DNA of 39,875 bases, from UHGV virus genome UHGV-0200725. The stretch is one strand, 5' to 3'. Made by a program: the position numbers and the translations under genes. The stretch is from a virus. Shown here in pieces: positions 14,953 through 39,311 of this stretch. The notes below the pieces were generated by a model. The model was not told the origin of the DNA. It saw only the letters and a list, made by a program, of their open reading frames with translations, and did not search any database. Position 1 is the stretch's first letter, and every line of letters starts with the position of its first letter.

Positions 14953-15131
14953 GACGACAGCGACGAAGTTTCACCGACATCATCTGCGAAAACTGCAAAT
15001 ACCTTCCAACGAAACGCTCCAGAAATAAACGCAAGCCAATCCCAAAAGAATCTGACGTAAAAACCTTCAACTACACGGCTCACCTGTGGGATATCCGGTG
15101 GCTTAGAGAACGTGCGAGGAAAACAAGGTGA
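14949..15131 (+). CDS. ninE: NinE-like protein
   Basis: 60-aa basic [63 protein letters not shown] in the lambda ninE position. Confidence 0.6.
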
Positions 15132-34947: not shown

Positions 34948-35337
34948 TTAACATTTTCTTTTTACTTTTCCAACAAAAGCTTTGGTTGAATCCATATTCC
35001 CATAACCAGAAATGGTTTTCGACATTAAAACTGTTCCATTAGGATGTATTACCCATGAGTCGATAACTCGTTGAGTTTCGCCATTCGCGCCGATTCCAAT
35101 GATGGAGTTTTTAGACAATGCTTTGTAAGCCATGCCGCCCGCATCCGTCCCAGAATATGTGATACTGGCATCTTCACCGTTTGTCTTAATGATGAATGTT
35201 CCACTAAAACCATCTTCTTCCGGTTGAAAATTATTTCGTTCTGAATAGCTTATTCCGTGCATATCTCCAACGACCCAGCACTCTGCTGAGACAGAAAACG
35301 AGAAGACAAGGAAAGCCATTGCTATAATCAATTTCAT
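34948..35337 (-). CDS. Secreted hypothetical protein (129 aa) with signal peptide, distal gene of the mnt operon
   Basis: N-terminal MKLIIAMAFLVFSFSVSA then ECWVV; Cys near both ends of the mature protein; beta-rich; convergent with gene 16 (24-nt gap). Confidence 0.65.
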   Translation of the reverse strand: MKLIIAMAFLVFSFSVSAECWVVGDMHGISYSERNNFQPEEDGFSGTFIIKTNGEDASITYSGTDAGGMAYKALSKNSIIGIGANGETQRVIDSWVIHPNGTVLMSKTISGYGNMDSTKAFVGKVKRKC

Positions 35338-35352
35338 TTTAAGCCCTTATTG

Positions 35353-35688
35353 TTATTGATTCTTTTTGCACGGAAATGTTTTTCCTACTGCTAGGGCGGT
35401 TAGTATAACTGCACTCTCATTTCTTGATTCTGGGTTTTTGTTTAGATATTTCTCAACGATATCGGTGTATTGATACATGTCAACGCCATCAGGAGGACAT
35501 AGAGAACCAATTAGTATCAATGAGTCAGTTACTCCGCGCAAATATCCAGTAATGTAAAGCGATGAAAAATCATCACCCTTTTTACCTTGTTGAATGTTGT
35601 AAAGAAGGTCATTACCCGTTTGAAGCTCGCGCAGCTCAGCACTGGAAGAAGAGACAACTGCTAACAAGAACAGTGATAGAAATCTCAT
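35353..35688 (-). CDS. Secreted hypothetical protein (111 aa) with signal peptide, translationally coupled to mnt
   Basis: ATG 35688-35686 overlaps the mnt TGA; N-terminal MRFLSLFLLAVVSSSSA; two Cys in mature protein; helical character. Confidence 0.65.
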   Translation of the reverse strand: MRFLSLFLLAVVSSSSAELRELQTGNDLLYNIQQGKKGDDFSSLYITGYLRGVTDSLILIGSLCPPDGVDMYQYTDIVEKYLNKNPESRNESAVILTALAVGKTFPCKKNQ

Positions 35689-35939
35689 TTCAAATCCTTT
35701 TCATAAATCTTTTTAAGTGTCTCAAACACTATAGCCTTGAACTGCTCAGCCTGCTGATCAGCCAAGCGTTCAGCTTCGTCGCGATATCCTGTAATCGGTG
35801 ATGGTTTTGATAGTGCATCCTGAACGATTTGTAATAACTCAGAGTTCATTGACCTTCCGTTAGCCTCGGCTCTTAATTTCAATTTTTCTCTTACTTCCAA
35901 AGGCATACGGAAGTTAAAGTGCGGATCATCTCTAGCCAT
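35685..35939 (-). CDS. mnt: Mnt repressor (ribbon-helix-helix)
   Basis: 84-aa ORF MARDDPHFNFRMPLEVREKLKLRAEANGRSMNSELLQIVQDAL... matching P22 Mnt as recalled; divergent from arc across an operator region. Confidence 0.85.
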   Translation of the reverse strand: MARDDPHFNFRMPLEVREKLKLRAEANGRSMNSELLQIVQDALSKPSPITGYRDEAERLADQQAEQFKAIVFETLKKIYEKDLK

Positions 35940-35961
35940 GCCATCACTCCAAGTTAGTGTA

Positions 35962-36013
35962 TTGACATGATAGAAGCACTCTACTATATTCTCAATAGGT
36001 CCACTGTGGACCT
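35962..36013. promoter_or_regulatory. Pant promoter with Arc operator and Mnt operator
   Basis: -35 TTGACA (35962-35967), -10 TATATT (35985-35990); Arc operator ATGATAGAAGCACTCTACTAT (35967-35987); palindrome AGGTCCACTGTGGACCT (35997-36013). Confidence 0.75.
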
Positions 36014-36029
36014 ATATTGTGAGGTGAAC

Positions 36030-36191
36030 ATGAAAGGAATGAGCAAAATGCCACAGTTCAATTTGCGGTGGCCTAAAGAAGTATTGGATTTGGTACGCAA
36101 GGTGGCGGAAGAAAATGGTCGGTCTGTTAATTCTGAGATTTATCAGCGAGTAATGGAAAGCTTTAAGAAGGAAGGGCGCATTGGTGCGTAA
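36030..36191 (+). CDS. arc: Arc repressor (ribbon-helix-helix)
   Basis: 53 aa from ATG 36030: MKGMSKMPQFNLRWPKEVLDLVRKVAEENGRSVNSEIYQRVMESFKKEGRIGA, matching P22 Arc as recalled. Confidence 0.85.
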   Translation: MKGMSKMPQFNLRWPKEVLDLVRKVAEENGRSVNSEIYQRVMESFKKEGRIGA

Positions 36192-36259
36192 AGTTGAAGC
36201 CCCAACTGCTGTAACAGTCAGGGCTTCGGCATCAACAAATCGGATTAGGAAATATTGAC

Positions 36260-37138
36260 ATGAAAAGTATAGCAAAGGCACAAAACGATTTCACCATCTT
36301 CAAATTCGGCGACAGTGAAATCCGCGTCATCAACAAGTGCGGTGAGCTGTGGTTTGTAGCTAAAGATGTTTGTGATGCTTTAGATTTGACTAACTCACGC
36401 AAGGCGCTTACTGCACTTGATGACGATGAAAAGGGAGTAACTTTAAGTTACACCCTTGGTGGTGAGCAGAATCTAAGCATTGTGAGCGAATCAGGTATGT
36501 ATACATTGGTTCTGCGCTGCCGCGATGCAGTCAATAAAGGTTCAGTCCCGCACAAATTCCGCAAGTGGGTAACAGCAGAAGTTCTGCCTTCAATTCGCAA
36601 ACATGGCGAGTATGTAAAAGGAAAGAAAACCACTGTTGAGGAAAGAACACCGCTACGCGATGCAGTAAACATGCTGGTAGGAAAGAAAGGACTTCGCTAT
36701 GACGATGCATACAATATGGTTCATCAGCGTTTTGGTATTGACAACATTGATGAACTTTCAATTGAACAAATCCCGCTGGCCGTAGAGTACATCCACAGGG
36801 TAGTGCTTGAAGGCGAGTTTATCGGCAAACAAGAGAAGAAAACCAACGAGCTTTCTGAAAAAGAAGCAAACAGCCTTGTATGGCTATGGGATTATGCCAA
36901 CCGCTCACAAGCATTATTCCGCGAACTGTATCCGGCGCTGAAACAAATTCAATCGAACTATTCCGGCAGATGTCATGACTGCGGTTATGAGTTCTCCCGT
37001 ATTATCGATATAGCGAGAGACGTTTTAATCAATCACTCACGAGATGTTGATATCAATGAGCCAGACGGACCAACGAATCTTTCCGCATGGATGAGACTTA
37101 AGAATAAAGAATTACCTCCTTCAGTACATAACTACTGA
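36260..37138 (+). CDS. ant: Antirepressor (Ant-like, Bro-N/KilA-N type N-terminal domain)
   Basis: 292-aa ORF downstream of arc; N-terminal region typical of phage antirepressor domains. Confidence 0.7.
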
Positions 37139-37157
37139 CAGATAACCAACGCAACGA

Positions 37158-37180
37158 CCCAGCTTCGGCTGGGTTTTTTT
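37158..37180 (+). terminator. Rho-independent terminator after ant
   Basis: CCCAGC-TTCG-GCTGGG followed by TTTTTTT. Confidence 0.8.
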
Positions 37181-37238
37181 ATGCCCAAAATTCACCGTAG
37201 CCACGCTGCGGCGATTCCTTGTATCTGGAGCAAATTAA

Positions 37239-39311
37239 ATGACAGACATTACAGCCAATGTTGTAGTGAGCATGCCTTCGCAACTCTTCACTATGGCTCG
37301 TTCTTTTAAAGCCGTAGCCAATGGCAAAATCTATATCGGTAAAATTGACACTGACCCGGTAAATCCTGAAAACCAGATTCAGGTTTATATAGAGAACGAA
37401 GACGGTTCTCACGTTCCTGTTTCGCAACCAATCATCATTAATGCGGCTGGTTACCCGGTATATAACGGACAGATTGCCAAGTTCGTAACTGTGCAAGGCC
37501 ATTCGATGGCTGTTTATGATGCATACGGTGTGCAGCAGTTCTATTTTCCTAATGTGCTGAAGTATGACCCGGATCAGTTGCGACAGCAATTATTAAACCC
37601 TGACACTGGCCTAGGAGATGCGCTTGTTATTGTTAAACAGCCATATGCTGATTCTGTACCTATTACTCAACATCAGCACAACACCTATCTCCTTACCCCT
37701 TACCACTTCGGAGCAAAGGGAGATGGTATTGCAGATGACACTCTTGCCCTAAACCGCTGGTCCAATTGCGGAGCTAAGGTACTCTATTGGCCAGCAGGAA
37801 AATATCTGGTGAGCCCTACAAATGGTGTTTCTCTGGATATGGATAACTACCATACAGGGGATTCCGCACTAACGGCGTGCGTAACCGTTCCCTATGGCGT
37901 GAAAATTTATACGGCTGGGACAGAAACCCAGTTATGCGTGAAGGATGCTGACTCAGCATCGACCGTAGGTCTGGCCGTTAGCTACCCGGAGTCAAGTTAT
38001 TCCCAGGGAGAAACCGACATCGGAAAATTCATGATTCGCCTGGAAAACGGAAATGGTCGGTACGGTATTCTTACTCCACTCAGGGAGGAAATGTTCACTG
38101 CGCACCGGGCGAAGTTCAAATTAGGAGCGCATTTCGGTCCTCAACAGGGGCGTGATGACCTGACGGTGCTACAGTATTCGTGGGTAAATGGCATGCTGAT
38201 TGGCGACGCTTTTAGCGGCTCAGTGCATGTCACTGGATACGGCAGCTATAACGTGCAGCAGGTTGAAGGTACGCAATTCCAGTGCGTGGCCGTTAAGATG
38301 AAGTCCGTTCGAGGTAACGTAGGTGTAGACATCAGATTCAACACAAACAACTGGTGGAAGTTTGTCGAACTGAGTGACGGCGTTGAAGGGTTTGTTGTCA
38401 AGGACAGCGAAGGGCTTGGGGCATTTGTTGGAATCGACCTAACCAACCCAGCCAGCGAGCCAGGTGGATTTATCGATAACGTACACGTCAACGTTAAGCA
38501 AAACGGAGTACGAGCCAGAAACAGGCCATCCCTGCAAATCGGAAACATTGAAGTCTATAAAAGTGATGGATTTGCCACTGACCTTGTTTACGATGCGGTG
38601 CTTCTGGTTGACTGCCAGGAAGTGACTATCAACTCTATTCACGCAATCGTCGGCAACTCAATCACAAATGCTCAGTCAGTAGTTAACTCGACAAACAGCA
38701 CATTCCGCCTGAACTCATACTTTGCGCAAAACATCAGGTTCGTCGATTTTGTGGTTAATAGCCCTGACTGCTATGTCGGAGAGGGGACAATTAACCAGGT
38801 CGAGGCAGTTCACTCACTTTCTGGATCACAAAGCAACGACTTCCACGGTAGTGATGTTCTGGTTAGATCCTACAGAAACAACGTTCGCCCACTTTACGCA
38901 GTGATGGATTCCGCTTTCAACAGGGCAAGGGCGAGGTTTCCACAAAATACAAGCCTCCAGGTGAGAACCTTTCTCGACTACACTGTGGCAGCAGCTGGGA
39001 CTTTAACAATAGAACCAAGGCTTGACCCCTCCAGGTACTACATCATCATGAGTGCTGGTACAGGTGCCTTCACCTATTCAATTGAGCTGGATAAAGTGTC
39101 TGCCGTAGTTGGTGATATTGTTTACATAAAGATAGCCGGGTCATCATCTGCTAACCCAACAGTTTTGGTTAAAAATGGTATTGGTGGGACAACGCTCAGC
39201 ACATTCAATAATATCGGTCCGATTCGTTTGAATTGTGCTTACAGATTTAATGAGTCAGGTAACTGGGTGGCCTACTACATTACCCAAAGCGTTGAAACCA
39301 CTTATGGCTAA
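37239..39311 (+). CDS. 9: Tailspike: P22 gp9-type head-binding N-terminal domain with a divergent receptor-binding body
   Basis: 690-aa ORF; first roughly 115 residues ([11 protein letters not shown]...VLKYDPDQ) match the P22 tailspike head-binding domain; remainder is Gly/Asn/Val-rich beta-helix-like sequence unlike P22. Confidence 0.85.

Follow-up and report, generated by a model that had tools for sequence, protein, structure and literature searches.

A probable orthologue of the P22 sar antisense RNA in the arc-ant spacer of a P22-like Escherichia coli prophage

The sar RNA of phage P22 (Liao et al. 1987, Wu et al. 1987, Schaefer & McClure 1997, as cited in PMC2629481) is a 69-nt RNA that represses Ant (PMC3134472) and blocks the ribosome-binding site of ant (PMC7968456). 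It lies within the immI region of P22-like phages, is annotated in epsilon34 (PMC2629481) and has been seen by small-RNA sequencing during P22 infection (PMC13397905). The question raised here is whether the corresponding spacer of a P22-like E. coli prophage, contained in a stretch of 39,875 nucleotides of the virus genome UHGV-0200725 (hereafter the window), holds such an RNA and, if so, how it is built. A sequence-only reading of the window had noticed a hairpin between arc and ant and had proposed a sar-like antisense locus at this junction. The analysis presented below supports that proposal by a match to the sar family of Rfam, by alignment with P22 and by a promoter on the minus strand, and we consider it very probable that the minus strand of the spacer encodes an orthologue of P22 sar. 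An antisense RNA gene of this type is already known and belongs to a curated family, found here in its canonical context.

The spacer extends from 36192 to 36259 and is 68 nt in length, as had been read earlier, since the arc stop codon TAA occupies 36189–36191 and the ant ATG begins at 36260. Open reading frames together with Pfam and promoter scans reveal a complete immI module (mnt, Pmnt/Pant, arc and ant), with the gene order mnt (minus strand), arc, spacer, ant, a plus-strand terminator and the tailspike gene. The mnt gene (35685–35939, minus strand) encodes an 84-aa repressor of Pant with Pfam matches to Arc and Repressor_Mnt, and arc (36030–36191, plus strand), the first gene of the Pant operon, encodes a 53-aa repressor (Pfam Arc PF03869, 105.8 bits) and is 93.6% identical to P22 at the DNA level. 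The antirepressor gene ant (36260–37138, plus strand; phrog_245, anti-repressor Ant) encodes 292 aa, and its Shine-Dalgarno sequence AGGA is located at 36247–36250 on the plus strand, ahead of the start codon at 36260–36262. Ant consists of an N-terminal Bro-N domain (PF02498, 71.9 bits) and a C-terminal P22_AR_C domain (PF10548, 98 bits). Identity with P22 Ant is 82% over the C-terminal 171 aa, whereas BLASTP of the N-terminal 121 aa gave no significant match to P22 Ant; between the Bro-N part and the N-terminal part of the P22 protein no similarity is detectable.

The promoter scan placed Pant at 35962–35990 on the plus strand (TTGACA-17-TATATT, 11 of 12 consensus matches) and Pmnt at 35995–35967 on the minus strand (TTGAGA-17-TATCAT, 10 of 12). 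The two promoters are divergent and overlap within 35962–35995, a region that also takes in the Arc and Mnt operators and is positionally homologous to the annotated promoters and operators of P22. The arc-ant operon ends at an intrinsic terminator predicted by the terminator scan at 37156–37175 on the plus strand (8-bp stem followed by TTTTTAT), and the ant terminator of P22 is annotated at the same relative position. Two small genes are found on the other side of mnt. A 111-aa protein of the Rap1a/Tai family is encoded at 35353–35688 on the minus strand (PF18602, 55 bits; phrog_3870); RefSeq names it 'Rap1a/Tai family immunity protein' and its N-terminus resembles a signal peptide. It sits where P22 has orf59a/sieA and is possibly a moron of the type VI effector-immunity kind. 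Because its ATG and the mnt stop codon overlap (ATGA), the gene is likely to share the Pmnt transcript with mnt and to be expressed in the lysogen. A 129-aa open reading frame with a hydrophobic N-terminus at 34948–35337 (minus strand), flanked by the DNA-transfer gene and the Rap1a-like gene, appears as a further small 'ant moron' gene; it matches phrog_2651, a family of unknown function, and gave no Pfam match.

We scanned 35500–37400 against all Rfam families, and the whole window at the gathering threshold. The sar RNA family RF00262 matched at 36258..36192 on the minus strand with 65.6 bits (gathering score 43, E 7e-13), covering the full model from position 1 to 68 of 68, and it was the only Rfam family found in the whole window at the gathering threshold. 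The same model scored 97.8 bits on P22, 95.6 on epsilon34, 94 on N7, 87.7 on 611R6, 84.6 on CUS-3, 72.4 on Kapi1, 69.4 on PhiR12_1, 61.7 on Emek and 48 on SPN3UB. The lower score of the window compared with P22 is explained by its 5' half, which is only distantly P22-like.

Megablast of 35900–36400 against phage records retrieved P22 and about 50 relatives, with 93.6% identity over 35901–36275. In the alignment with the P22 record BK000583 the spacer falls exactly on the annotated sar misc_RNA (15021–15090, minus strand), sar terminator (15021–15058) and sar promoter (15097–15125, minus strand), where arc ends at 15022 and ant starts at 15091. The likeness is close: the predicted RNA occupies the same 68-nt arc-ant spacer of immI on the same strand, has the same length, two-hairpin architecture and 3' tail (AACUUUAC), begins at the base before the ant start codon and is complementary to the ant ribosome-binding site. 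Its promoter, Psar, likewise occupies the same place in ant with the same extended -10, TGcTATACT. About 30 nt over stem-loop I and the ant ribosome-binding site have diverged, the 5' 30 nt being GUCAAUAUUUCCUAAUCCGAUUUGUUGAU in the window and GUUGGUUUUUCUCCAAGGAUUUACUGAC in P22. After this diverged stretch an island (ACATGAAnAGTATAGCAA) is conserved, beyond which the ant genes are unrelated; the part of this region that bears the -10 (ATGAAnAGTATAGCAA) thus stands conserved between diverged flanks. The -35 is GTGAAA in the window and GTGTTA in P22, and the hosts differ as well (E. coli and Salmonella, respectively).

Combining the Rfam match, the P22 alignment and a covariance model built in this work (R1, described below), the predicted sar RNA spans 36190..36259 on the minus strand and is about 68–70 nt long. 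R1 matches the window at 36259..36188 with 89.2 bits. By homology with P22 we infer that the RNA begins at G 36259, directly ahead of the ant ATG, and that its 3' end lies in the UUU at 36192–36190, where it would overlap the arc stop codon by 1–2 nt. Stem-loop I (36231..36259, minus strand) has a 7-bp stem, GUCAAUA/UGUUGAU, with two G.U pairs in both the MFE and the centroid fold. Directly after its 5' arm, at the base of a 15-nt loop region, is the anti-Shine-Dalgarno sequence UUUCCU, complementary to AGGAAA at 36247–36252. Stem-loop II, the terminator hairpin (36196..36227, minus strand), has a 14-bp stem and a UACA loop and is followed by AACUUU (36195–36190).

The divergence of the 5' half could also be taken to mean that the locus is a decayed remnant, that is, a sar homologue made non-functional by its recombined 5' half or promoter or by a defective ant module. 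In keeping with this, the 5' half has moved away from P22, the Rfam score of the window is the third lowest of the ten, and the locus is mosaic with the junction inside sar. We nevertheless regard decay as extremely unlikely. The 5' hairpin, the anti-Shine-Dalgarno, the extended -10 and the spacing to +1 are all intact, the ant frame is full-length with both domains, and stem I, with 7 bp in the window and 6 in P22, differs from that of P22 by compensatory changes. Moreover, the same variant recurs elsewhere: PhiR12_1, vB_EcoP_Kapi1 and E. coli prophages such as NZ_AP042564.1 are 96–100% identical in DNA across sar and the start of ant, and PhiR12_1 and Kapi1 have a 5' hairpin of the same type as the window. 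They differ to the left of the terminator hairpin, where PhiR12_1 and Kapi1 have another gene and the window has a P22-type arc. Of 5426 complete E. coli genomes, 47 contain the 501-bp stretch 35950–36450 with at least 80% coverage, and 645 contain at least part of it.

The chromosome of E. coli OkiPb01694 carries this 501-bp stretch with 100% identity. The linker between the two sar hairpins (36230) reads GAUGCC in the window and GAUACC or GAUAAC in close relatives with the same 5' type; the window's base at 36230 is shared by the OkiPb01694 prophage, and the difference is probably neutral. In the records of Kapi1, PhiR12_1 and NZ_AP042564.1 only proteins are annotated and sar RNA is not, and the RefSeq annotation of the identical E. 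coli prophages likewise holds proteins only, without the RNA.

With an intact sar orthologue as the preferred reading, the hairpin itself can be considered on both strands. GAAGCCC (36196–36202) and GGGCTTC (36221–36227) are 18 nt apart, and the sequence-only reading had described them as a 7-bp stem with an 18-nt loop. The positions hold; the extent was understated, as the stem is 14 bp long on the minus strand. On the plus strand two stems of 10 and 4 bp are separated by a 2x2 internal loop and capped by a hexaloop, with -22.5 kcal/mol over 88 nt (z -2.95). Three C.A mismatches of the plus strand turn into G.U pairs on the minus strand, where the stem therefore runs unbroken over 14 bp up to the 4-nt UACA loop. 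The minus-strand fold with both hairpins reaches -29.9 kcal/mol over 75 nt (z -5.98) and none of 200 shuffles was as good; a fold of this quality is far outside what chance would give, and it is the minus strand that folds better. A chance hairpin was rejected on these z-scores together with the covariation described below. It had also been suggested that the hairpin overlaps the approach to the ant ribosome-binding site. The hairpin itself stops short of that site, ending 20 nt upstream of the AGGA; it is the 5' hairpin of the antisense RNA (36259..36231, minus strand) that covers the ribosome-binding site.

Since the plus strand folds too, the hairpin might be thought to act in the arc-ant mRNA, as an attenuator or partial terminator, as a 3' stabiliser for a processed arc mRNA or as an RNase III site. 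It begins 2–5 nt past the arc stop codon, and the target of a cis-antisense RNA bears a mirror-image structure that is expected to matter for pairing. Nonetheless, a role in the mRNA appears highly unlikely as the explanation of the structure. No T-run follows the hairpin on the plus strand (GGCATCAACAAATCGG) and the terminator scan gave no plus-strand terminator there. The three positions that are C.A mismatches on the plus strand are kept as G.U pairs on the minus strand (UG in all 74 distinct homologous sequences, UG in 54 and GU in 51), the minus-strand fold is much the stronger, and a role on the plus strand would leave the conserved minus-strand promoter unexplained. A plus-strand attenuator or terminator was thus rejected on the missing T-run and on the conservation of its C.A mismatches as G.U pairs.

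For the sar orthologue, in turn, the hairpin provides the terminator. The sequence-only reading had not been able to identify one, although it had described the element itself: on the minus strand this same hairpin, with AACUUUAC after it, is the terminator. Compared with the terminator annotated for P22 sar, only one loop base is different, G in P22 and T in the window. The U-run after the hairpin is short (CUUUAC), as is the identical tail in P22, and for this reason the sar terminator was absent from the output of a generic terminator scan requiring at least 5 T in 8 bases. We accept the terminator because of its near-identity with the annotated P22 element and not from the scan. In P22, small-RNA reads run about 30 nt past the terminator tail (table in PMC13397905), suggesting that termination may be leaky.

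Both hairpins were compared across many related loci. A degenerate stem II pattern, which fixes 9 of the 14 pairs on both sides and 3 more on one side and leaves 2 free, returned 120 IMG/VR stretches. Covariation is seen at four stem II pairs that the pattern leaves open on one side or on both (two of them on both): pair 12-21 alternates between UA (30 sequences) and GC (11 sequences) and is 100% paired, pair 11-22 occurs as CG, UA, GC or AU, and pair 9-24 as GU, GC or AU. For stem I, 55 unique 5' parts were compared. A hairpin starting from +1 is formed in nearly all of them, and the loop regions carry a pyrimidine-rich anti-Shine-Dalgarno (UCC, CUCC or CCU). In 53 of the 55 variants the sar strand forms the more stable hairpin of the two strands (mean -6.9 kcal/mol, against -2.85 for the mRNA strand), an asymmetry due to G.U pairs.

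A MAFFT alignment of the RNAs was rejected for counting pairs, as it set the 3' arm of the P22-type stem I one column out of register. We therefore built the covariance model R1 from 12 phages and re-aligned the 99 matches that it gave in 100 sources, which comprise 74 distinct sequences. In the R1 alignment 92.9% of the cells are paired, compared with 83.2% in shuffles and 40–43% in registers slid by 1–3 columns. Among the 74 distinct sequences 12 of the 21 pairs are changed on both sides, and doubly changed cells number 141 against 27.7 expected, figures to be read with the caveats that the alignment was fitted to the model, that stem II is partly fixed by the pattern and that many of the sequences are close relatives. 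None of 500 shuffles reached the observed value on any covariation measure. In stem I double compensatory changes occur in all seven pairs across the 74 homologues; in stem II 98.6% of the cells are paired and double changes occur in 5 pairs. Both helices of sar covary across about 100 related loci.

Sar-like RNAs that fall below the Rfam threshold were observed in the Edwardsiella phages Edno5 and GF-2 (Gofduovirus) and in the Klebsiella phage ST101-KPC2phi6.1, at 400–470, 392–462 and 367–437 of the respective analysed stretches, in each case on the minus strand. They have the same promoter and two-hairpin layout and score 62–70 bits with R1, for which Edno5 and GF-2 belong to the training set and ST101-KPC2phi6.1 lies outside it. 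The match in ST101-KPC2phi6.1 falls inside a CDS annotated as a 543-aa 'hypothetical protein', a gene call that may be too long.

The promoter expected for such an RNA had escaped the sequence-only reading, which had suggested that the minus strand be searched for one. A consensus scan combined with the P22 position places the predicted Psar at 36294..36266 on the minus strand, within ant codons 3–12. It consists of a -35 GTGAAA (36294–36289), a 17-nt spacer and an extended -10 TGcTATACT (36274–36266), giving 9 of 12 consensus matches in addition to the TG. The predicted start at 36259 is 7 nt downstream of the -10 (six bases between), immediately upstream of the ant start codon, and corresponds to the 5' end annotated in P22. 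Promoter-like sites are frequent in this AT-rich stretch, where 6 were found against 2.5 expected, which makes the scan weak when taken alone, and we therefore rely on positional homology and conservation. In an alignment of 12 phages the site aligns column for column with the annotated P22 Psar (15097–15125).

Among 52 unique upstream sequences drawn from IMG/VR and GenBank, the -12 T is conserved in 81% and the -11 A, the -9 A and the -7 T in 85% each; the -15 T and -14 G of the extended element are conserved in 65% and 77%, respectively, and the -33 G in 87%. The -10 hexamers themselves vary (TATACT, TACAAT, TACACT, TAAACT, TAAGCT and others), the overlapping ant codons 3–4 encode differing residues, and -9 and -12 are at third codon positions. 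This combination suggests that the constraint acts on the DNA and not on the protein. The swap of the Ant N-terminal domain starts right after the codons that bear the -10. Psar lies inside the 5' end of ant and faces Pant. In P22, Psar is reportedly stimulated by convergent transcription from Pant.

The best-supported mechanism for the sar of the window, by analogy with P22, is pairing that blocks the ribosome-binding site; transcription, the exact ends and the repression of ant are carried over from the P22 work. A sigma-70 Psar with an extended -10 in the first ant codons would fire leftwards from the G at 36259, and transcription would end where the short U-run behind the GC-rich 14-bp hairpin (36227..36196) overlaps the arc stop codon, yielding an RNA of about 68–70 nt with two hairpins. 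The duplex with the mRNA would span ant positions -68 to -1, including the Shine-Dalgarno sequence, and complementarity to the ant leader is perfect because the two form a cis-antisense pair. As the anti-Shine-Dalgarno adjoins the stem at the loop base of the 5' hairpin, pairing may start there. On the mRNA side the mirror of stem I reaches only about -0.6 kcal/mol and is not in the centroid structure. With C.A mismatches in place of the G.U pairs of sar, this region is nearly unstructured, and so the ribosome-binding site is expected to be open unless sar binds. Pairing would then occlude it and switch off Ant synthesis, leaving arc unaffected, and sar together with the protein repressors Arc and Mnt would jointly limit production of the antirepressor. 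The lambda OOP/cII and IS10 RNA-OUT/RNA-IN pairs (reviews PMC5415839 and PMC7968456) also involve small, structured, constitutively terminated antisense RNAs that overlap the 5' end or ribosome-binding site of their target and block expression; their sequences and structures are unrelated, which makes them analogues of sar and not relatives.

The mosaic joint mentioned above lies inside the sar terminator hairpin (36190–36230 and flanks). To its left the mnt-arc side is P22-like (93.6%), and to its right the 5' half of sar and the N-terminus of Ant are like those of PhiR12_1 and Kapi1 (99 and 96%, respectively). Among unique IMG/VR and GenBank sequences one arc-side flank is found with four types of sar 5' half and ant, and vice versa, so reassortment of arc-side and ant-side modules is observed. 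The record of CUS-3 labels this stretch 'bsq2 boundary sequence'. The 5' hairpin and the anti-ribosome-binding-site region differ among window/Kapi1, P22, CUS-3, Emek and other types, and the terminator hairpin is nearly invariant. This pattern tempts one to think of sar 'specificity classes', in which the invariant hairpin serves as the joint for recombination between the arc side and the ant side and the class of the 5' hairpin decides whether relatives' antirepressors are cross-silenced. We put this forward tentatively, as an idea that is rather doubtful at present; cross-talk of sar between co-resident or superinfecting phages is speculation by analogy.

The finding concerns a textbook regulator, the antisense RNA of P22 immI, and has little importance beyond annotation. 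Precise annotation of the RNA, promoter and terminator is now possible in the window and in its identical or near-identical counterparts among E. coli prophages and phages (Kapi1, PhiR12_1, NZ_AP042564.1). The comparative data add covariation support for the two hairpins and reveal a sar promoter kept within very different ant N-termini, and relatives of sar extend past the Rfam threshold to phages of Edwardsiella and Klebsiella. The invariant terminator hairpin at the mosaic joint between arc side and ant side is a mildly interesting by-product. If the idea of specificity classes were true, the classes of sar would work as incompatibility groups do for plasmid antisense RNAs.
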